From Scenedesmus sp. PABB004 (lineage: Eukaryota): 64,000 nt of DNA. Shown here in pieces: positions 26,378 through 57,468 of the stretch. The notes beneath the pieces were generated by a model. It was not told where the DNA came from. It was given only the letters and a program-made list of their open reading frames with translations, and searched no databases. The first letter of the stretch is position 1. Each line of letters begins with the position of its first letter. The position numbers and the translations under genes are program-made. The stretch covers positions 744,001-808,000 of the forward strand of contig JABVCE010000004.1 of the NCBI GenBank assembly GCA_014905635.1, read 5' to 3'.

Positions 26378-27685
26378 GCGCGCTGAGCGCGCCGCGGCCG
26401 CCGGCCCCAGCGCGGGGCGGCGGGCTCCGTTGAGAATAAAGGGCGGGCGGGTGTGACGGGCGAGACCTCTCTCCTTTGGCGCCGCGCGCGCACGCGGCGG
26501 CCCTCTGTGCATTGCGGGGTCGTGTGCATGTTCCTGACTGACTGACAGACCACCCCCGCGCGCTGCGGCGGCGGCGGCCCGGCGGCGGCCGCCTGCCGCC
26601 GCGACAGTTGTTTGGCGCGGCGCGCTGTTAGAGTTCCGTGTTACGTTACGTTACATACACGCCCATAACCTCATGGTCTGCCCCGCCGGGGGCGCCTGGC
26701 GCGCGCCGCGCACGCGCGCGCCGCCGGGCGCCCCCCTCTCGTGACCGACCGACCGGCCCTCCTGCCCGTTTGACCGACGGCGACCATGCATCGATCGATT
26801 CCCCTATGACGGCCGCTGACAGGGCGCTTTGCTGTACGGGGGCCGCTGCTGCGAGGGAGGGAGGCGCGCGCGCGATGGGCGTTGCTGGCCGGAGAAGAAC
26901 GCCTGCTGCTGCTGCGCCGCCCGCCGCACAGCGAGTGTGTGCGCGCGCGGACGCACAAGGATTCATCGGCGCGCCGCGCCCGCCGCTGCTGCTCACCCGG
27001 CCCCAGCTCCCCGCGCCCGCGCCGCCCTGGGGCCGCCCTGCGCATCACGCGGCGGCCGGCGGCGCGGGCGCGGGCGGGCGGGGGCGCAGAGCAGCAGCAC
27101 GGCGGGCGCGCGCGCGTGCAGGCAGCGGCGGCGGCGCGAGCCGGCCCAGGGGCGCGCCCCGCGCTCTCTTTGTGTGCACAGGCAGGCGGGCTGTATTTTT
27201 AGCAGGGCGGCGTGCGCGGCACCGTCGCCGCCGGCGCGCCTGGCGGCCCTCCGCCGCCAACGCACGCCACGGAGTGCGGCGCTGCGTGCGCGCCATTGAT
27301 CCACCGCACTGCGCCCGAGCAGCTCATTGCTGTCGCACTCCCTGCACTGTAGGCGGCGGCGGGTGGCGCTCGCGGGAGCGTGTGTGTAAAAGGTTCTGCG
27401 ACAGGCAAGCGCGCCTCGATCAGCAGCGCGCAGCGTCGCTGAACCCTTGCACCGTCACGCCGCGACGACGCCGCGCTCGCCCCCTTCCCTCCCCGCCCCG
27501 CCGCCCTGCCCGCCACACCCCCGCCCGCGCCTCGCGCCGCCGCCGTCGCCCCTGGGCGCGCCCGCGCCGCCGCCGCAGCAGCAGCCGCCCGCGCGGCGCC
27601 CTCCGCCGCCGCCGCGGCGCCCCCGCGGCCCCGGGGCCGCGCCCCGCCGCCCGCCGGGCCTGTGACCCCGGGGAGCGTCGCAGCC

Positions 27686-41900: not shown

Positions 41901-44206
41901 CTCTGGATCTCGCGCTCGTACGACTCGAGCATCTCCGTCAGCATGCGCACCTGGCGGGTGCAGGGCGGCGGCGGCCGCGCGGGAGACAGCGCGCGAGCGA
42001 GTGCGTGCGTGAGCGAGGGAGCGAGCGCACGTGCGAGAGTGTGATAGCGGCGCGTGCGCGGCGGCGCGCGCTGCGCAGCGTGGCGGCGGGCCCCGCGCCG
42101 CGCGCGCCGCGCGCCGCGCACCTGCTGCCCCGGGCCAACCGAGACCTTGGCGTCGCGGGCACCGCCGCGCGTGGTGCCGTAAATGATGGAGAACGCGGTG
42201 CTGGGGCCGGCGAGGCCGTCGTCGTCCGGGTCCAGCCCCTCCTCCACCTCGCGCTGGCGGTGGCGCTGCAGCTCGCGCGACACCCACGCCGCGTGCGCCT
42301 GCTGCTGCTTGTGCCACGAGAGGCAGAGCTCCGTGAGCGTCTGGTTGTCCTCCAGCGCCTGGCGCGGGAGAGGGTTACGGCCGGCCGGGCGGGAGGCGTG
42401 GGCTGAAGGGAGCGCGAGAGCGGGCCAGCCAGCAGCCCCCGGAAGGCGCGGCGCCGCGGCGGGCGGGCGGGCGGGCGGCGGCCCCGCGCACCGCCTTGAT
42501 CGCCGCGCTCGTCTCCTTGACGTCGTTCTTCACGCTCGTGAGGAACTTCTGGATGGGGATCAGCCTGGCGGGCACACGGGCGGCGACGCGCGGCGCGCGT
42601 CGCGGCGCGGCGGGCGTGGGCGGCCGCGCGCGTCGGCACGAGGTGCGCGGCGCCGAGCCCCGCGGCGCGCCGCCCAGCCCCGCGGCGCGCGCCGCGCACT
42701 GGTGGGCCTTGTCCATGGCGCCCTGCGGCTGGCTGGGCTGCCGGATGTCGGCAGCGATGGACTCGAGCATCCAGTTAAGGTGCTGGCACTTCGTGTAAAA
42801 GTACTCTGTGCATGTGCACAGGCGGCGCAGAAGCAAGGCGAGTGCGTGTGTGCGTGTGTGGGTGTGCGTGTGCGCACGCGCGTGCGTGCTGTGTGCGTGC
42901 GTGCGTGTGCACGCGCCGCATGCGCCGGCCCTGCCGCCGCCGCCGCCGCCGCCGGCGCCGGAGCTGTTGGCGCACCGGTGGTGGCGTCGAGCAGCACCTC
43001 CAGGACCAGCATCTCAAACGGCACGTCCTTCAGGTCGCTCCCGCCGCCGGTGCGCCCCGCCGGGCCGCCGAGGCCGTCGTCGTCGCCCGGCTCGCCGCCC
43101 GCCGCCCAGGCCTTGCGCGCGCGGCGCGGCGCGCCGCTCGCGGCGAGCACGTCCGCCGCGCCGAGCGCGCGGCCGCAGCCGTGCGAGCTCGGGCCCGTCG
43201 CGCTCGCGCGCGCCGACTCGGCCTCGCGCTGCTGCTGCTCCCACAGGCGCAGCGCCATAAGGCGTTGGTCGTTCGCGGCGAGGATGTTCTGGCTCAGCTT
43301 CTGCGTGTCGGCGTCGCGCCTGCGGGAACGCACGCGACGCGCAGCGCGCGTCGGTCTGCCCGCCGCCTGCCTCTCCCGCGCGCGCCAGAACGAGCGCGCG
43401 GCACGCCCGCGCCCAGGGCGGCGGCGGCGGCGCCCGCGCCCGCGCGGCGGCGCACCTGCTCTTGATGAGGATGGCCTTGTCGGCGGTGATGATGGCCTTG
43501 ACAATCTCAGTCTTCACCAGGATCTTGCCATCATGCACCGCGATGGTCGCGCGCTGCGCGTGCCGTGCGGCGGCGGCGGCGCGGGCGGTGAGCGCGGGCG
43601 GTGAGCACGGGCGCAGCTGCGGCGGCAGCCGCAGCGGCGGCCCTGCGCGGGAGGCGTGGCTGCGCGGCGGACCTGCGGCGCCGCGAGGCGGCTGAGCGGC
43701 GCGAAGAGCACGACGTCACGCGGGTGCAGGCCCTGCAGGGGCAGCGGCAGCGGCGGCGGCGGCGGCGCGGGGGCGTGGGCCACCACCGACCGCGCTGCTG
43801 CCGCGACGCAACGCCGCCGCGACGGGCGTGAGCGCCCGCCGAGCTGCCGCCGCCGCGGCGCGCCGCCCGCACCAGCTGCTGCGGCGTGCGGGGGCGGTAC
43901 TCCTCCACCGCGGTGCCGTTGGCGTGAAACTCCACCACCTGGGCGCGCACGCACGCGCGGCGGCGGGCCGTCAGCCGAGGCGTCGCCGGCGCGCGCGTCT
44001 GCATGCGGGTCACGTGCTGCCGTGCCAGCGCTGCCGCCAGTGCTCGGTCGTTCCTGAAAGAGGGGGACCTTGCGCCGGAACTTGCGGCCGAGGCCGCCGT
44101 GCATGCCCTCGGTGTAAAACTGCGTGAGCACGTGCCCCGGCTCGGTGAACTCCTCCGGCGTGAGCGTGCCGCCCTGGAGCTTGTCCGAGCTCGGCCACAG
44201 CAGGCT

Positions 44207-47110: not shown

Positions 47111-48772
47111 ATGGCCGGCTTCGGGGTGAGCGCGTCGTGGTCCAGGGGGCCGCCCTTGCACCGCGTTGGCCCGCCGCTCGCTGCACGCGCGCCACGCGGC
47201 GGCGCCGCCCGACCGGCGCGGATGCGGCCGCAGGCGGGCACGTCCTTCCTGGATGACGACGACCCCTACGATTTCGGGGGCGGCATGAGGGCGTTTGACG
47301 CGGTGCGGCGGCGCACAACGGGCACGGCCGCTGCTGCGCGGGCGCGCGCCGCCGCCGCGTCCGCCGCCGCCGCGTCCGCCGCCGCTGCGTGCCGCCCACG
47401 CGCCGCCCCCGCGCTGCTGCAGGTGGTCCGCTACCGGCCGGAGGAGCAGCAGCACCCCAGCTTTGGCGCGGGGTGAGCGGGCGCGCCAGGCGCTGCGCGG
47501 GCCTCCTGCCCGCGCGCCGCCACGCGTGCACACGACCCCCGACCCCCGCGCGCGCACGCCCTCCACGCGGCGCCTGCAGGCTCGCGAGCCTGGGCGCGGC
47601 AGCGGCTGGCGACAAGTGGCGGCAGGCGTTCCTGCGCGTTGCGGCGGCGGCGGGGCTGGCCGGGCCCGACCCCGACCCCGACGCCGTCGCGGCGGCGGTC
47701 GCGGGCCTGCGCGGCGCCGAGGCGCGCGCGTGCACGCTGCAGCAGCAGGAGGCGGCGCTGCAGGTGCAGGTGGCGCACCTGACGCTGCAAAACCTGGAGC
47801 TGCGCCGCGAGCTGAGCAGCGGCTGGTGCGCGGCGGAGCCGTCGGTGCTGCATGCGCGGCAGCTCGTGCTCGACCCAGCGATACAGCAGGAGTTTGCGCG
47901 CCTGCGCGAAGAGCTGGTCGAGGCCAAGGCCACGATCAGCCAGCTGCGCGAGCACAACGACTCGCTCACCTTCACCGCGGTGCGGCGGCGGCGGCGGCGC
48001 GCCGCGCGGCGGCGGCACGCGACGGGCGGCGGCACGCGACGGCGGCGGCGGCACGCGACGGCGGCGGCGGCACGCGACGGGGCAGCTGGTGGCGCAGCGC
48101 CCGCGCGCGTGGCGGCGACGCCGCCGCGGCCGGCCGCGCAGGAGTCCAAGATGGGCCGCGCGCTCATCAACAAGCTCAAGACGCTGGCCGACGAGAACAC
48201 AGAGATGGCGGCGCAGCTGCGCGATGGCAACGCGACGCAGGCGCGGCGCCCGCGCGGCGCCGGCGCCCCGGGGGCCGCGCGGCGCGGCGCGCTGTGGTCC
48301 CGGACGCCCGCCCCGGCCCGGCCGGCCCGGCCAGACCCCCGCCGCCGCTGGCACCGCCGCCGGCGCGCGCGCGCAGGCAGCGCTGGTTGCGGTGGAGCGG
48401 CACCACGCGGCGGAGCTGCGCAAGGCGCTGGCGGAGCTGCGCGACGCGGCGGGGCGGCTGGACGAGGAGAACGAGGAGCTGCACATGCTGCGCTTCCTCG
48501 CCACGCGCCAGATCCGGGAGTTGCAGGGCTCGGGCGGCGGCGCCGGCGGCGACGCGCGCGAGCGCGAGAGCGCGAGCGCGCGGGACTGGGACCGGGACCG
48601 CGAGCGCGAGCGGGACCGCGAGCGCGAGCGAGAGCGCGAGCGGCCGCCGCCCGCCGCGCGGCGCGGCGCGCACGCCGGCGGCGCGGGCCGCGGCGGGCGC
48701 GGGCGCGGCGGCGGCGACGCGCGCGACGCCGGCAGGGGCGGCTTCGCCGCCGGCTCGAAGCGGCCGCGCTGA
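47111..48772 (+). CDS. FIP37: m6A writer regulatory subunit WTAP/FIP37/Mum2 family; multi-exon
   Basis: RQLVLDPAIQQEFARLREEL..LTFTAESKMGRALINKLKTLADENTEM matches the WTAP coiled-coil core. Confidence 0.88.
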
Positions 48773-48831
48773 GGGGGCATGCAGGCGGGGGGCGTTGCAA
48801 CGCTGCGGTTGTGCGCCTCGCGCGCCCGAGC

Positions 48832-49797
48832 TCAGTCCACGAGCACTTGGACGTCGTGGCAGCTGTCCAGCAGCCGGCCGTCCTCAGCGATGGCGACAAA
48901 CGTCGGCAGCCGCACCCAGCCGCGTCGCAGCGGCAGGACCAAGAACGACACCTCGGCGCTCGCCCCCGGCGCCAGCGGCGCCACGCGCTGGCTGCGCGCG
49001 CCCTGCACCGCGACGTCCGGGTGGGGCGCCGGGCCGCCGCCGCCGCCGCCGGGCGCCGGCTGCGCCGGCGGCTGCGGCGCCGACCTGCGCTGCAGGCCGC
49101 CGGCGAGCGGGCCCTGCTGCCCGGCCGCGGGCGGCGGCAGCGGTTGCGGCGCCGCGCCGCCGCCGCCGTCGCTGCTGCGACTGCTGGGGCCGCTGCCGCC
49201 TGCCGCGGCCGCGCCTCCGGGCGGCGGCGGCGGCGGCCCCGAGGGCGACAGCTCTGTGTACAGCACCAGCAGCGCGCCGCCGCCGTGGTTGGCCGCCGCG
49301 GTGAGCGTGAAGGTGGCGACCGCAAGCTCGCCGACCGCGAGGCGGCCCGCGAGCGGCGCGGCCGCCTCGCCGCCGCTGCCGCCCGCCGCGGGCTGCACGC
49401 CGCCGCCGCCCGCCGCGGGCTGCAGACGCGTGAGCTGCATCAGCACCTCCCGCCCGCTCACCGCCAGCGGCCCCGACAGCGGCTGCGTGAGCAGGCGGCC
49501 GGTCTTTCCCTCCGGGTTGCTCCAGTGCAGCTCCAGCCGGCCCACAGAGGCAGGCGGGCCGCCGCCGCTGCTGGCGCGGCCGGGGCCGACGGCCCCGCCG
49601 CCGCTGCCGGCTGCGCCGCCGCCGTCCAGCGGCGGCAGGTGGCTGTCGATACTCCACAAATAATTGCGGCTGCCGCCCGGCGGCAGCACTGCGAGCGGCT
49701 CGCACTGCTGGGCCGGCTGCGGCCCAGCTGCGCTCGCCGGGAGCTGCTGCGGCTGCTGCTGCTCCAGGCCATTCGGCAGGGGCTTCACGCCTCCCTG

Positions 49798-49849
<52 letters not shown>

Positions 49850-50803
49850 ACAGAGGGCGCAGCCGCAGCAGCCCTGGCGCCCGCCGAGGTGCCCCCGTCG
49901 TCGCTGTCGTGCTGCTGCCGCGTGTCGCTGCCGTTGGCGCCGCCGCCCGGGAGCTGCTGCCGCGCCTGGCCCGCGCCGCCGCCGCCCGTCGACTTGCGCT
50001 CGCGGCCGTGCGCCTGCTGGTCCGTCTGCAGCTGCTGCCACGGCCGCGCGTCCGCGCCCGCCGGCGGCAGCGCCGCGCCGCGCGGCGCGAGCAGCGCGGC
50101 CGCGACGCCGTCGCCCGCGGGCAGCAGGCTCACGGTGTGCAGCGCCAGCGGCAGCGCCGTGCTGTTGCCGACGCAGACCTCCAGGAACGACGTCGTGCGC
50201 GTGCGGGCCGCCCAGCCCGGCGCCGGCGGCGCCGCGCCGCGCACGTGCGGGAGGCAGCGCACGCGCGTGCGCACCGAAAGCGGGCTGGTCGCGGTGAGCT
50301 TGAAAAACTGGACCACGTACTTACGCTCCCCGCCGGCGTCCGTGAAGACCGCCGACGCGACGAGCGTCGCCAGCCCCTGCTCCTTGATGTCGGCGCTCGC
50401 CGCGACCTCGTGGCGCGCGCCCGGCGGCAGCAGCGCCAGCGGCGCGGCGCCGTTGTCGTGCAGCGCCGCCGCGGGCGCGCCGCCCTCGACGCCGAGCTCG
50501 ACCTTGACCGCCACTGCCGCGATGGGCGCCGCCAGGCCGTTGGTGAGCGCGATGCGGAAGTCGACGGTCTGCGGGTGGCGGCGGTGGTTGCGGCAGCGGC
50601 GTTGGAGAGCCGCCGCTGGCGTGAGGTGCGGCTGCGGCTGCCGCTCCTCCCCGCACCTCGCCGAGGTAGAGCGTCGCGCCCTCGCGCAGCGGCTCGAGCC
50701 GCGGCGGCGCCGCGACCGCTGCCGCCGCTGCCGCGCCGCCGCCGAGAGCCAGCGCTGCCCCAGGCTCCCGTGACGCGCGCCAGAGGACGAAGGACAGCGC
50801 CAT
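48832..50803 (-). CDS. TRAPPC13: Trafficking protein particle complex subunit 13 (TRAPPC13/DUF974)-like; 2 exons
   Basis: TLYLGETVDFRIAL, DIKEQGLATLVASAVFTD..GERKYVVQFFKL..PLSVRTRV, FLEVCVGN, GRLELHWSNPEGKTGRLLTQPL. Confidence 0.8.
49797..49848. repeat. (CTG)n trinucleotide repeat encoding polyQ in TRAPPC13
   Basis: Directly visible; reads as a Gln run on the minus strand. Confidence 0.9.
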
Positions 50804-51501
50804 GGCAGCGGCCGCGGGTCGACGACGAGGGCGCTGCTGCTGCCGCTGCTGCGCCGCTGCTGGCGCCGCTGCTGGCGCCGCTGCCGCGGGGCGGGCTGAC
50901 GCCAAGCAGCGGGAGCTGCTGGGCGTGCGGGTGGGGCGGGAGAGCTAACCCGCGTGCTTCAACCGCCGCGTTGCGCCGCTGCGACGGTGCAGTTCGCCTG
51001 AGCTCCGCCGTCGCCCCTCAGCTGGCAAACCCCCGCCCGCAGCCTTGCCCGCGGCCCTGTTGCCACGGCGCGCTTCGCGAAGGCACGGTCGGCAGCGCGC
51101 CAGCAAGGGCGCCCCGCGGCGCAATCTGGCGGCGCCGCCAAGCGCTGGCTGACCGGCCGCCGAAGCCCGACGGTGCGCCTTGAACGGGCCCTCTTCACAT
51201 CGGGCTCGGCGCGGGGCCCCACGCAGCCCCGGACGCGGGGCCGCCGCCGCGGCGCGCGCGCCGCTGCTGCTGCGCGCCAACGCCCCGCCGCGCCCGCCGC
51301 GTGCTTCGCAGGCGCCGCGCGTCGCACGCTGCCGAGCATGGGTCAAGCGGCGCTCGTCGACCACGCCCGCGGCGCCAGGCGGGCCAGGCTGGCCGACTCG
51401 CGCGCCCCCGCCGCGCCGCGCCCCGCCAGCATCATCGCTCGGGGGGCAACAGGGTCGCGGGGAGCTCAAGGGCCACTTTTCTCTATTTTGCGAGGTGGTT
51501 T

Positions 51502-52719
51502 GTTGACGACGAGCCAGGCGGCGAGGCACGTGATGCCCGCACAGTCGACCTCGTTCGAACTGAGCGGGCATCACGTGCGCCGCCGCCTCGGTTCGCCGTC
51601 AACGGCGCTGCGCGATGCCGCCTCTCCTACAGCGCCGCCGCCGGCCAAACGGCCCTCTCGCGCAGTGACGCCGGTGACTTGGCTGCCCAGCTGCAGGTCA
51701 CGGCGTCACTGCGCGAGGGCTTGGTCGTCGCCGTGCCGGCGGCGGCCAGGGCAGCCGTCGGCCGCGGTCCTGCAGGATCCTTCAGCGTTTCGCTGCGCTG
51801 CGTGGTGTGCTTGAACATTGCGTCGAGCTCCTGTACCTTCTGCCCCAACCAATCAGGAGCTCGACGCAGCGCTCAAGCGCATCACGCAGCCTGATCGACG
51901 CGCTCAACGCGACCCTGGTTGGCGCCACGCAGCGGCGGCGGGTGCGTGGAGCGCGCCGGCCGACATCGTTTCTCGCAACATTGGCGTTGCCGGAGGGCAT
52001 GTCGCCCGGCGCGCGTCACGCAGCCGCCGGTGAGGTTGTCGGCGCACGGGCGCTCCTCGTACTCTTGGTCGTTGGCCCAACGACCACGCAGTATGAGGAG
52101 CGCCCGCGCGCCAAGAGCCTCACCGGCGCCGCGCCCGCCGTCGAGGCCGCCAGCGGGTGCCCACCATGACCGCGCACGCCCAGACGCTGCACCAGGAGCC
52201 GCAACGTCGGCGTCGGCCGGCTCTAGCACGCTGCCGCGGGAGTTGTTCAGCTCCCAGGCGGGCAGGCCCCGCCTGGGCGCAGGTCAACAGCTCCCGTGGC
52301 AAGGTGCCACAGCGGTCGACGTCGCGGTCAACGCGCTGTGCTGCTGGCGCAGCGCAAACGTCGCGGCCCGGCGTGCGGGTCGCCGAGGCTGAGGCGGCCG
52401 CTTCTCGATGGGCCCGGCGCGAGCGGCAGCCGGCCGCGGCGCATACTCGTCGCGCGTTGCTCGACGTGACGCGGGACGAGTGTGCGCGCGCGGCGCCGGC
52501 TGGCACTCGCGCCGCCGACGTTGCGGCGGCGCTCCGGCCGGTCCTCAGCCTCGCCGGCTGCTCTGCAGGCTGCTCCACGCATCAGCCCGAGCCCCGGGAG
52601 CGGTGCTAAAACTCGTGCCACGTCATCTTGACATGGGGCCAGTTCAAGCATCGCCTCCGCGGCTCGGGCTGATGCGTGGCTGGGCGCGGCGGAGGAGCAG
52701 CAGGCTGCAGAGCAGCCGG
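51502..52719 (+). ncRNA. Array of eight consecutive long imperfect stem-loops; candidate polycistronic miRNA/small-RNA precursor
   Basis: Hairpins at about 51502-51603, 51634-51746, 51797-51890, 51936-52029, 52026-52127, 52185-52354, 52384-52553 and 52554-52719. Perfect cores include GCACGTGATGCCCGC (15 bp), CTCGCGCAGTGACGCCG (17 bp), TGCGTCGAGCTCCTG (15 bp) and CCACGCATCAGCCCGAGCC (19 bp). The hairpins are directly visible; RNA function is inferred. Confidence 0.65.
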
Positions 52720-53125
52720 GGCGGGTGGCGGCGGCACAGCAGGTGGCACGGCGGCCGCCGGTGCCGCCGACCAGGCTGGCGCTCGCCGCGCGGCAAGCCG
52801 GGTGACGACAGCGGCAGCTGGCTCCTCGCGCCACGCGGCGCCCTGCGTGGAGAAATGAACGGTCCCGTGAGCGCCGTCTGGCCAGCTCCGAACCCGCCTG
52901 CTCAGCAGAACCGCGCCGGGGTGACGCTGCTGCCTGCTGCCTGCCGCCCCCCTGCCGTCGCCTCTCAGCTGGCGCAGCCCCTCCCCGCCCGCACCGTCGC
53001 AGCCTCAACCACACGCGCGCCCGCACAGGCGCTGCCGTTGCCGCCGCTGCCGCTGCCGCCGGTGCCGTCGCCGCGCGCCGCTGCTGCCGGCGGCCTCTCG
53101 ACACACGCCGGCCGCCGCTGGCGCG

Positions 53126-55069
53126 ATGCTGCTGCTCACCAACATCGCCCACCTCTGGACCGGCGACGAGTCGCTGGGCGAGATCCGGGACGCGGCGATC
53201 GTGATCGACGGCGCTGCCATTGCGTGGGTGGGGCTGGCCGCGGACGTGCAGCCCGAGCAATTCGCCGCCGCGGCCGAGGTGGTCGACCTCGCCGGGCACG
53301 TGGTGACGCCGGGCCTGGTCAACACGCACACGCACATGTGGAACTGCCTCACCCGCTGCGTCGCGCACGTGCGGGCGGGCGGGCGTGCGCGCGCGCGGGC
53401 GGCGGGCGGGCGGGCGCGCGCACACGCTGCCCTGCCCGCGCTGCGGCGCGCCCCGGCCGGCCCGCCTGCTGCTGAGCGCGCGCCGCGGCCCGCCGCGCAG
53501 GACGAGGGCTTGGGCGGGTGGCTCAGCGCGCTGTTCCCCGTCTGGGCGAGCCTCACGGTGGGCGGCGCGCGCGCGCCCGCTGGCCGGCCGGCCGCCCCTG
53601 GGCGCGGCGGCCCGCCCACGCGCCGCCGCATCGCGCGCGCAGGCGGACGACGTCGCGGCGGCGTGCCGGCTGGCCATGGCGGAGCTGCTGCTCAGCGGCA
53701 CGAGCACCTCGTCCGACCACCTTTACACCTTTCCAAACGACGTGACCCTCGACGTCACGATCGCCGCCGCGGCGGCGATGGGCCTGCGCTTCCACCCCGT
53801 CCGCGGCGGCATGAGCCGCGAGTGGCAGGCGCGCGCCGCCGCGTCCGCGCCCACGCCCGACGCGCCGGGGCAGCTCGGGGGTATGCCGGCGGCGCTGTTC
53901 GAGGGCGATGAGGACATGCTACGTGACATGGAGCGCTGCATCGCGCAGCACCACGACATGGCCCGGTGCGGTGCCCTCCTGGCTGCGGTTGCAGGCGCTG
54001 GCTGGGCGGCCGCGCGCTGGGCGCGCGGCGCGGCGCCGGGCGATTTCCGCCGCACAACAGCCGCGCCGCCGCGCCGCCGCGCCGCAATCGCCCCCGGCGG
54101 CAGGCACTCGATGGTCCGCGTCGCGCTGGGGCCCGCCGTGGCGCGCAGCGCGTCGCTGGAGCTCATGCGGCGCGTCGCGGCGCTCGCGGGCGCGCACGAC
54201 GGCGTGCGGCTGCACACGCACCTCGCGGAGGGCGAGGTGCGCGCGCGCGCGCGCGTGTGCGCCGGCCCCGCGCCTGCCTCTCGCCCGTGCCCGCCCTGCC
54301 TCTCTTTCGCGCGCTCTCGCCCGCCCACGCCCGCCCCCGCCCCTCTCTCGCCCCCCGCGCGGCGTGTGCCGCGCAGGACGACCTCTCGTACACGCAGTCA
54401 GCCCTCGGCTGCGCCACGTTCAGAGAGTACGTCGCCTCCATCGGCTGGGACAGCCGGAAGACCTGGTTTGCGCACTGCTGCAAGGCCGAGCCGGCCGACG
54501 TGAACGCGTTTGGCGCAGCGGGCGTGGGCGTGGCGCACTGCCCGACGAGCAACCTGCGCCTCGCGGCGGGCGTCGCCGACGTGCGGCGCATGCTCAACGC
54601 GGGCGTCACGGTGAGCCTGGGGACCGACGGCGCCGCGAGCAACGACGCGCCGCACATGCTGGCGGAGGCGCGCATGGCGATGCTGCTCGCGCGCCGCGGG
54701 GGCTGCCCGGCGGGGTGCTCGGCGCGCGAGGCGCTGTGGGCGGCCACGCGCGGCGGCGCGGCCAACCTCGGACGGGACGACGGCATCGGACGCATCGCCC
54801 CCGGCTGGGCGGCCGACGTGGCGGCGTGGCGCACCGACGACAGCCTGCCCTTCGCCGCGGCGGGGGCCGACCCCGTCGCGGCGCTGCTGCTGTGCGGCGG
54901 CAGCGCGCCCGTGAGCTGGCTGCTCGTCAACGGCCGCGTCGTGGTGCGGAGCAGGGTGCTGGTCGAGCCGGGCAGCGGCGCGCCGGTCGACCTGGCGGCG
55001 ATCATCGCCGACGCACGCGCGCGCTCGCAGCGCCTGCTGTCGCTGGTGCGGCGGCCGCCGGCGCCGTGA
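53126..55069 (+). CDS. Metal-dependent amidohydrolase, 8-oxoguanine deaminase / AtzB-like family; multi-exon
   Basis: [66 protein letters not shown] and [10 protein letters not shown] metal/catalytic motifs. Confidence 0.9.
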
Positions 55070-55226: not shown

Positions 55227-55651
55227 TCACACGGCCGCGAGGCCCACGTACTTCTCGCACACCGCCAGCCCCTGCGCCTTGCGCAGCTTGCGCGCGACGC
55301 GCGCCAGCGCCGCGTCGCCGCCGCCGTCGCGGCCCGCCGCGGCGAGCAGCTTGGCGTGCAGCTTGGCGATGCGCATGCGCTTCTTGGGAGCGCCCTCGAG
55401 GATCTTGGCAGCCAGCCGCGCCCACTTGACGCGCGACTTCGCCGCGCCCTCCGGCGCCGGCGCCGCTTGCTGCTGCTGCTCCTGCTGCTCCTGCTCCTGC
55501 TGCTGCTGCTCCTGCTGCTGCTGCTGGGCCGCCGCCGCCGCTGCGGCCTTGGCCCGCTTGGCCGCCTTCTTGCCGCCGCCGTCCGCAGCGCCGGCATCCC
55601 CGCCCCGCTGCTTGCGCTTCTTGCCGCCGCCCGCCGTCGCTGCGGTGCTGC

Positions 55652-55707
<56 letters not shown>

Positions 55708-57468
55708 CCCTGCTGCCGCCGCTTGGCGGGCATGACGATCACGATGCCGCTGCTCAGCCGCGTCTCAACGTAGCCTGCCGCGGCAGCCGCCGCGGCCGCC
55801 GCCGCCACCGCCTGCTCCTGCTCCTGCTCCTGCTGCTGCGGCGGCGCGCCCGGCTCCTCCCCCTCGCCCTCGTCCTCGCTGTCGCTGCCCAGGCGCGTCT
55901 TCTGGCCCGCCCAGCGCGCGCCGGCGACTTTCTTGGGCATACCGGCGCGGCCCAGCCCCTGCTTGCCCTTGGTCGCGCCCTCGTGCGCCTGCGCGGCGGC
56001 ACACGTGCGGCGGCGGCACACAAGCGGCGGCGGCGGGCGTGCGGCGCAGCGTGAGCGTGCGGCACCAGGCCGCCCGCGGCGCGACGCGGCCGCGCCCGCG
56101 TGCGCCCCGGGCCGCACCTGCATGTAGAGGGCGGTCTGGTCGTCCTCTTGGAAGCCGGCGATGGTGATGGCGGTGCGGCCGCTGCGCGGCGCGGGCGGCG
56201 CCGCGCCGCCGGCGCGGCCGCCCTTCACGAACAGGCTGCGCCACCACGCGCCCGCGCCGGCGGGCTCGGGCTCGGCGCCGCCGGCGGGCGCGTCCGCGCC
56301 GGGGCCCTCGGAGCCCTGGCGCTCCGCGCCGCGCGCGGGCGGCGAGTCCGACCCCGGCGGCGTGGCAGGGCGCAGCGCCTGCTCGCTGCTGCCGCCGCCG
56401 CCCTCGCCGCCGCTGCTGTCGCTGCCGTCGCCGTCGTCGTCGTTGCTGCTGGCGCCGCCACGCGCGACGCCGCGGCCGCGGCCGCGCGCGGCGCCGGCGG
56501 CGGCCGCCCAGGCGTCGGCGCCCTCGGCCCCGCCCGCCGGCGGCGCCGCGCCCGGCACGCCGAGGATGGCCGCCAGGTCGTTGGCCGAGTAGTTGCGCAC
56601 CGTCTTGGCCGCCTCGCGGCGCTGGTAGCGCCCGAGGTGCGTCGCGGCGCGCACACGCGACGCGCCGCGCGCCGGCGCGGCGCCCGCGCCGGCGCCCGCG
56701 TCAGAGTCAGAGTCGCTGCTGTCGCTGCCGCTGCCGCTGCTGCTGCCGTCGCCGGAGCTCGAGCTCGAGCTGGGCGGCGGCGGCGCCTTCCTGGCCCTCT
56801 TGCCCGCCGGCTCCGCGGCCGCCCCACCCTGCTTGCGCTTGGCCGCCTCGCCCTTGCCCTTGCCCTTGCCGCCCTTGGCCTTGGCCTTGGCGGCGCCTGG
56901 CTTGGCGGCCCTGGCGGCCTTGGCGGCGGCCGGCGGCGGCTCGCTGTCGCTGTCGCTGCTGCTGCCGCTGCTGGCGCTGCCGCGCGTGATCTCCTTGAGC
57001 CCCGTCAGGATCGCGTCGTAGCCCACCATGCCCGTCGTCCAGTCGCGCAGCTTGTGCGCGTGCTCCGCCTGCGGCCGGCGGCGGCGCGGCGGTCAGCGGC
57101 GCGCGCAGCGGTCGGCGGCCGGCGCGCGGCCGGCGGCTGGCGGGGCTGCTGCGCGCACCGCGCCGACGCCCAGCGCGTCGTGCTTCTTCTTGACCTTGAC
57201 GTGCTCCTTGATGCCCTGGCTGCTCGCGCCCTGCGGCGCACGCGCGGCGCGGCGGCCGCCGTCGGGCGCGCGCGGCGGCTGCGGCGGCGCCGTGCCGCGC
57301 GGCGGCCAACTCCCGCCGCCCCGCGCCGCCGCAGCGCGCGCGCGGCCGCACCAGGCCCTGTCCCTCGCGCCAGCCCAGGTTGGCGAGCAGCTTGTAGCCC
57401 ATGGAGGCCTTGTCCACGCCCTGGTAGAGATTGGGCAGCGCGCTCGCGGGCGGCGGAGCGGACGCCAT
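55227..57468 (-). CDS. G-patch domain protein, PinX1/Gno1/GDP1-like ribosome biogenesis factor; multi-exon
   Basis: YQGVDKASMGYKLLANLGWREGQGLGASSQGIKEHVKVKKKHDALGVG G-patch; GFQEDDQTALY..GKQGLG..VAGARWAGQKT; Lys/Ser-rich. Confidence 0.85.
55653..55704. repeat. (CTG)n repeat encoding polyQ in the G-patch gene
   Basis: Directly visible. Confidence 0.9.

Follow-up and report, generated by a model that had tools for sequence, protein, structure and literature searches.

A tiled block of eight strong hairpins between two divergent algal genes, a candidate cluster of small-RNA precursors

Described hairpin loci and the present array

A miRNA gene is recognised by a single stem-loop containing a duplex of ~21 nt with few mismatches, by the precise release of a 20-24-nt pair with 2-nt 3' overhangs, and by the participation of a Dicer-like enzyme and of Argonaute. 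In the algae studied so far, clustering of miRNA genes is rare and the genes are not conserved from one species to another; polycistronic miRNA clusters include mir-17~92, mir-309 and plant clusters made up of non-homologous miRNAs. The hpRNAs of Drosophila are hairpin-RNA endo-siRNA loci, and such loci, as well as young plant MIRNA genes, arise when their target genes are duplicated in inverted orientation. MITEs are also known sources of miRNA genes.

In Chlamydomonas, DCL3 is described as cutting stem-loops that reside in non-coding RNAs, introns and UTRs, and as destabilising the mRNAs that bear them (PMC4817775). According to the same study, dcl3 mutants over-accumulate mRNAs with UTR stem-loops, among them five whose 5' UTR harbors siRNA precursors and nine with fold-backs but no clear small RNAs (PMC4817775). 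For Ectocarpus, two miRNA clusters are reported among ~63 families, in an account that describes clustering as common in Drosophila (PMC12026948). Template-switch mutations, in turn, are presented as events that make whole hairpins in a single step and that have given rise to new miRNA genes in primates (PMC10710096).

Within the 64-kb stretch of algal DNA analysed here (hereafter the window), positions 51502-52719 hold eight separate fold-backs (H1-H8), the intervals of which measure 92-166 nt and tile ~1.2 kb. Like the DCL3 precursors of Chlamydomonas reinhardtii, these are long, near-perfect stem-loops of a GC-rich unicellular eukaryote, and they share with those precursors, as the latter are portrayed in the study, a lineage-specific character and the lack of a conserved family (PMC4817775). 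Unlike them, they comprise eight unrelated hairpins packed into 1.2 kb and are known from DNA alone; in the main text of the Chlamydomonas study, the word 'cluster' has 0 occurrences (PMC4817775). The block also resembles the polycistronic miRNA clusters of animals and plants in that hairpins the size of pre-miRNAs follow one another at intervals of tens of bases on a putative single transcript and in that members need not be paralogues, but its stems are longer and more perfect than those of animal pre-miRNAs, and it consists of predicted precursors only. With template-switch hairpins and miRNAs born de novo it shares an adjacent inverted copy across a short spacer (PMC10710096), whereas the known events are scattered over genomes and here eight are tiled at one locus. 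Finally, the apparently coding-derived arms, the lineage-specific occurrence and the near-perfect duplexes recall hpRNA and young MIRNA loci; such loci, in contrast, usually consist of one long hairpin derived from a single gene or of tandem copies of one hairpin, and no parent gene of the present arms was found in the window (blastn), in Pfam or in protein searches.

Eight hairpins in a non-coding gap

The block is held in a non-coding gap (50804-53125) between two divergent start codons. Codon-phase GC periodicity, followed in 201-nt windows, is strong at 48700-50800 and at 53100-55000, and none is seen in the intervening 50800-53100 stretch. To the left, a TRAPPC13-like gene (48835-50803, - strand) turns its 5' end towards the block. 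Its match to the Pfam family TRAPPC13_N is weak (E 0.0021, below the cutoff) and its exon 1 peptide has no Pfam match, but three homologues align at E 3e-79 to 7e-67 with identities of 47-50%, and the Atlas neighbours of one of these are TRAPPC13 clusters of eukaryotic origin. The start codon of this gene is probably the ATG at 50803, an in-frame triplet at the point where the periodicity ends. To the right lies an amidohydrolase gene of several exons (53126-55066, + strand; Amidohydro_1, E 1.6e-29), the start codon of which is at 53126. The position between divergent TRAPPC13 and amidohydrolase genes, as proposed in the first-pass annotation, is thus borne out, with a 2.3-kb gap devoid of coding periodicity separating the two.

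The GC content of the block is 69-77%, that of its flanks 77-87%. Directly left of H1, the sequence shows an AT-rich patch (51474-51500), the most AT-rich of the gap, which at a guess might be promoter-like or represent an end signal. TGTAA, the green-algal poly(A) signal, occurs eight times in the window against 2.8 expected, with no instance on either strand of the gap. Scans for sigma-70 promoters and intrinsic terminators returned 0 and 0, both being bacterial-type signals that are inapplicable to a eukaryote. A few further features of the flanks deserve mention: a GCT-type tandem repeat is present at 50832-50887 in the left flank, long tracts of the poly-glutamine or poly-alanine type are found at 49650-49800 within the TRAPPC13-like gene and at 55400-55700 within a 621-aa ORF, and that ORF (55227-57092, - strand) has no Pfam match.

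As the first-pass annotation had it, eight fold-backs fill the ~1.2 kb of the block. Each has 35-69 pairs, an apical loop of 3-20 nt and a spacer of 0-77 nt to its neighbour; the z-scores given here for the individual hairpins are relative to dinucleotide shuffles. H1 (51502-51603, 102 nt) has 43 pairs, a perfect core of 15 bp and a loop of 6 nt (z -12.5 on the + strand and -11.0 on the - strand), and H2 (51633-51744, 112 nt) has 48 pairs and a perfect core of 17 bp formed by 51657-51673 and 51701-51717 (z -8.2 and -6.6). H3 (51797-51890, 94 nt, 35 pairs; z -11.5 and -8.8) closes on a pyrimidine-rich loop of 20 nt. H4 (51937-52028, 92 nt, 37 pairs; z -7.7 and -6.9) and H5 (52029-52128, 100 nt, 42 pairs; z -11.9 and -10.2) adjoin without a spacer, the latter with a loop of just 3 nt. 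Further along the array follow H6 (52197-52332, 136 nt, 51 pairs; z -7.7 and -8.0) and H7 (52410-52513, 104 nt, 42 pairs; z -6.5 and -6.2), which is set within an outer helix spanning 52384-52553. The last and longest, H8 (52554-52719, 166 nt, 69 pairs), encloses an inner hairpin at 52575-52679 with a perfect core of 17 bp, and its z-scores are -9.9 on the + strand, for the inner part, and -12.1 on the - strand.

The earlier description of perfect cores of 15-19 bp needs correction: longest Watson-Crick runs of 15-17 bp are present in four of the eight hairpins, but the actual range over all of them is 8-17 bp. When G:U pairs are counted, unbroken helices reach 9-19 bp, and all eight form the single stem-loop expected of a miRNA precursor. 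Comparison of the block with the window by blastn yields eight self-reverse-complement matches (E 2e-27 to 6e-9, the best being that of H5), with arm identities of 72-86% that differ widely between hairpins. The claim that the hairpins have no sequence in common stands insofar as blastn detects no direct similarity among them; H3 and H4, however, have a 15-nt motif in common at their bases (51877-51891 and 52011-52025), and the hairpins are therefore not wholly unrelated. A shorter motif, CCACGCA/TGCGTGG, has six of its 21 window copies inside the block (51799, 51925, 51943, 52084, 52575 and 52673), with copies at the bases of H3, H4 and H8, an enrichment without significance after correction for all 7-mers.

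The eight hairpins are real and statistically very strong. The comparison with dinucleotide-shuffled controls that the first-pass annotation had called for places all of them far below those controls on both strands: against 200 shuffles each, z ranges from -6.5 to -12.5 on the + strand and from -6.2 to -12.1 on the - strand, and in none of the 16 folds (eight hairpins on two strands) is the native energy matched by any of the 200 shuffles. Individual duplex energies lie between -66 and -126 kcal/mol. For the 1281-nt stretch taken as a whole, the folding energies are -917.7 kcal/mol (+ strand) and -889.8 kcal/mol (- strand), a difference of 28 kcal/mol in favour of the former, which is also the more stable in six of the eight hairpins. 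When pairing span is limited, the fold divides the block into hairpin domains, and no nested or partial arms are seen in it.

Because the window is 79% GC and stable folds are common everywhere in it, we regressed minimum free energy on GC content over the full 64 kb, using 150-nt windows at a step of 50. Residuals below -2.6 sd are obtained for ten windows, all ten of which lie within 51451-52700, the best value elsewhere being -2.56. Close inverted repeats are found as 99 pairs across the window, and those of the 25 longest that fall outside the block are GCC/GGC-type low complexity. Shuffling of 38 candidate palindromes gives z-scores of -7.9 to -13.0 for the block's eight, at 61-80% GC, and only two palindromes elsewhere (26970-27115 and 49031-49239) reach -7.9, both of them self-complementary GCC/GGC triplet low complexity of 89-90% GC; the second is situated inside an exon of the TRAPPC13-like gene. 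Among sequence of normal complexity, the other 62.8 kb of the window hold no comparable hairpin. Low-complexity GCC/GGC stretches can thus be mistaken for hairpins in this genome. The second-best structural outlier of the window scan, at 42794-42910, consists of TGTAA followed by a GT/GC-rich microsatellite with a local GC dip to 61-63%, and probably reflects an intron or the end of a gene.

With respect to other classes of element, the block was described early on as being neither a tandem array nor a credible ORF. The former holds, as TRF detects no tandem repeats between 51428 and 52926 and the hairpins lack direct similarity to one another in blastn; the latter is taken up below. No tRNA was found in the block, and a search of the whole window against Rfam 15 gives 0 matches at the gathering score. 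A permissive Rfam scan returns eight matches to miRNA hairpins, all generic; the highest score is 32.8 bits, where the threshold is 83.

Environmental copies and a distant relative

A search for sequencing runs that contain the sequence listed three (X1-X3), all of metagenome DNA with shares of 0.08-0.11 and none recorded as RNA. They come from fresh water or lakes and belong to different studies, and their short-read contigs cover parts of the block, whereas the flanks yielded no long pieces. One X3 contig matches 51880-52030 with 0 differences and takes in all of H4, and an X1 contig matches 52240-52401, likewise with 0 differences. Two contigs of X2 are ~5% diverged, matching 51626-51905 with 15 substitutions and 24 gap letters, and 52085-52273 with eight substitutions. 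The arrangements H2-H3, H3-H4-H5 and H5-H6 recur in these metagenome contigs, and the order seen in the window is preserved in all matches listed. Since independent contigs carry the same arrangement, the block is real DNA and not an assembly artefact, and its presence in a ~5% diverged variant indicates that the array is older than that divergence.

The diverged X2 form further allows a comparison of stems and other positions, in which the listed changes, at a depth below 5, amount to nine substitutions in 258 stem positions and 11 in 211 others (Fisher p 0.37), a count that omits the 24 gap letters and three of the 15 substitutions of the contig at 51626-51905. Eight stem substitutions have their partner covered by the same contig, and in none of the eight is a compensating change listed. 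In H2, seven changes fall in the 3' arm, with the covered partners free of listed change, and in H3 three fall in the loop and one in the stem. Given the undisplayed gaps and substitutions and the depth below 5, X2 provides weak evidence against constraint on H2.

An alignment-based search of metagenome contigs for TRAPPC13 matched 80 pattern stretches and led to one confirmed locus (L001), a TRAPPC13 relative on 4955 bp of 71% GC at 41% identity. No hairpin outlier occurs in the 2.2-kb region preceding the TRAPPC13 gene at this locus, an observation that concerns one distant relative.

Origin and possible function of the block

We propose, tentatively and at somewhat less than an even chance, that the block is best read as a cluster of Dicer-substrate hairpins, i.e. 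as a locus, specific to its lineage, for an RNA with several hairpins. Eight duplexes of 35-69 bp would form independently of one another in a transcript across 51500-52720, which could be a non-coding RNA in its own right or belong to a flanking gene, as its 5' leader or an intron of that leader. A Dicer-like RNase III would cut the duplexes into small RNAs of ~21 nt of the miRNA-like or hairpin-siRNA type. Each hairpin would most likely have been born by a local fold-back (template-switch) inverted duplication. We infer from the DNA transcription, Dicer processing and the existence of any target, as well as the transcribed strand, with the + strand weakly favoured because it folds better overall and in six of the eight hairpins. 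The small-RNA reading is supported by z-scores of -6.2 to -12.5 in all eight hairpins and on both strands, by stems of 35-69 bp with small loops and few bulges, which fit Dicer substrates, by the lack of coding periodicity, of a passing Pfam match, of a tRNA and of a tandem repeat, and by the recurrence of the array in three metagenome runs. Furthermore, eight hairpins that are intact, do not overlap and are crowded into 2% of the window are not what a uniform neutral process predicts, and their concentration points either to selective retention or to a mutational hotspot at this site.

The latter possibility, a serious contender that we rate somewhat below the small-RNA reading, is that the block has no RNA function but is a site where fold-back (template-switch) mutation recurs at the level of the DNA, and that its hairpins are decaying palindromes. 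During replication, the nascent strand would repeatedly have folded over and been copied from itself, the intergenic stretch being free of constraint, and hairpins already in place may stall forks and provoke further events. Every hairpin of the block is an adjacent inverted duplication with a spacer of 3-20 nt, which is the footprint of template switching, and the spread of arm identities is as for events of differing age. The pairing data are consistent with such decay and at the same time argue against RNA-level selection on the stems: with 25 G:U pairs on the + strand and 16 on the - strand there is no significant strand bias, the pattern that decaying DNA palindromes would give, and the X2 stems are neither spared nor accompanied by listed compensation. 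The hairpin-free region upstream of the TRAPPC13 relative in L001 also speaks against selection on pairing, and the small-RNA reading is further disfavoured by the location of the block where promoters are expected, between divergent start codons and in a gap without TGTAA, as well as by the lack of an Rfam family at the gathering score. The indirect tests of RNA-level selection are neutral or negative, and they lend no positive support to the small-RNA reading. What the hotspot does not readily accommodate is the presence of eight intact, non-overlapping hairpins in 1.2 kb with no normal-complexity counterpart in the remaining 62.8 kb; nor does it account for the lack of nested or partial arms, which a neutral process would be expected to leave as it overwrites older hairpins. 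From recall and a limited literature search, we know of no described mutation hotspot of such form. We also give a slim chance to the idea that the hairpins are cis-acting structures in a long 5' leader of the amidohydrolase mRNA (+ strand) or of the TRAPPC13-like mRNA (- strand), where the mRNA would itself be a direct substrate of a Dicer- or Drosha-like enzyme, or scanning would be blocked, so as to tune the host gene without any trans-acting small RNAs. The UTR stem-loop mRNAs reported to over-accumulate in Chlamydomonas dcl3 mutants offer a precedent (PMC4817775), and read-through into a flanking gene is possible since no TGTAA intervenes between the block and either gene, but eight duplexes of -66 to -126 kcal/mol would abolish cap-dependent scanning, and leaders 0.4-1.9 kb long would be required. 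Even more doubtful, in our view, is a nest of different palindromic MITEs or foldback elements inserted side by side. Whole-length palindromes of ~100 nt are indeed typical of some MITEs; against this, no hairpin of the block has a second copy within the 64-kb window (blastn matches outside the block being only GC low-complexity noise), none of the eight is flanked by a target-site duplication of at least 3 bp at its ends, and the edge-to-edge landing of eight different families is unlikely. In addition, the metagenome matches listed, at depths of 2.2-4.8, show the hairpins solely in the same order and context, and exact 22-mers have 0 matches for H3 in a metagenome contig collection and 0 for H5 in genome contig and viral contig collections.

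A separate line of evidence concerns the ancestry of the arms. Codon-like 3-base GC periodicity is found in the 5' arms of H1, H3, H5 and H6 (permutation p 0.025, 0.0025, 0.0005 and 0.021, respectively), and the Fisher combined p over all eight 5' arms is 4e-5. In 45-nt controls, p<0.025 is reached by two of 23 pieces from the non-coding flanks and by 20 of 49 coding pieces, and both positive flank controls lie at 50855-50944, over and just past the GCT-type tandem repeat. With the two flanking genes as training set, a codon-position model is significant on the + strand for the 3' arms of H2 and H3 and for the spacers 51891-51936 and 52514-52553, and on the - strand for the 5' arms of H3, H5 and H6, so that H3 displays codon-like periodicity in both arms. 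In every case the codon-like 'sense' direction runs outward from the loop, which fits a former + strand CDS in which the reverse complement of each segment replaced the sequence lying upstream of it, and which also fits the polar copying in one replication direction that the hotspot would entail. These are hints that the array may have been built from former coding sequence. In a more specific version, to which we assign a small chance, a former + strand CDS was hairpinised by polar fold-backs and kept for distinct small RNAs directed against the parent gene or its paralogues. That the block instead is, or recently was, protein-coding, as a short-exon orphan gene or a pseudogene with the hairpins being secondary, is highly improbable. 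The four periodic 5' arms of eight at p <=0.025, the combined p and the two significant + strand spacers would be in keeping with it, but there is no coherent frame, 201-nt windows are without periodicity, and removal of the 5' arms and loops does not leave a long coding-like ORF. Nor do the predicted products resemble known proteins: 0 of 15 block ORFs has a Pfam match that passes the cutoff, a 133-aa ORF has 0 matches by phmmer against 1.84 billion proteins, and a 163-aa ORF has 0 in a word search of proteins. The differences between the two arms of H3, moreover, fall on codon positions 1 and 2. The first-pass statement that the block lacks a credible ORF accordingly agrees with the 15 ORFs and their want of a passing Pfam match or coherent frame. 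A gene structure with its exons in the 3' arms, and with the 5' arms plus loops as introns, was also considered and dropped, as donor-like GT and acceptor-like AG are not consistently placed at arm starts and loops.

Template switching could explain how the hairpins were born whether the block is functional or neutral. If transcribed and diced, the block would pack unrelated small-RNA precursors of a unicellular alga into an unusually dense cluster, and would be a clean natural case of hairpin genes arising from serial fold-back duplication, possibly from coding sequence. If not transcribed, it would represent a local template-switching hotspot that built eight stable palindromes side by side, an outcome of interest for replication fidelity in very GC-rich genomes. 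And should it be a hairpinised gene kept for its small RNAs, the array would amount to a compact, non-paralogous small-RNA operon in a freshwater eukaryote of ~79% GC. The metagenome matches indicate that the organism or its close relatives live in fresh water at low abundance: in the 49000-55000 part of the window, identical pieces come from lake or freshwater runs of 2018 and 2024, and the ~5% diverged form comes from a run of 2022.
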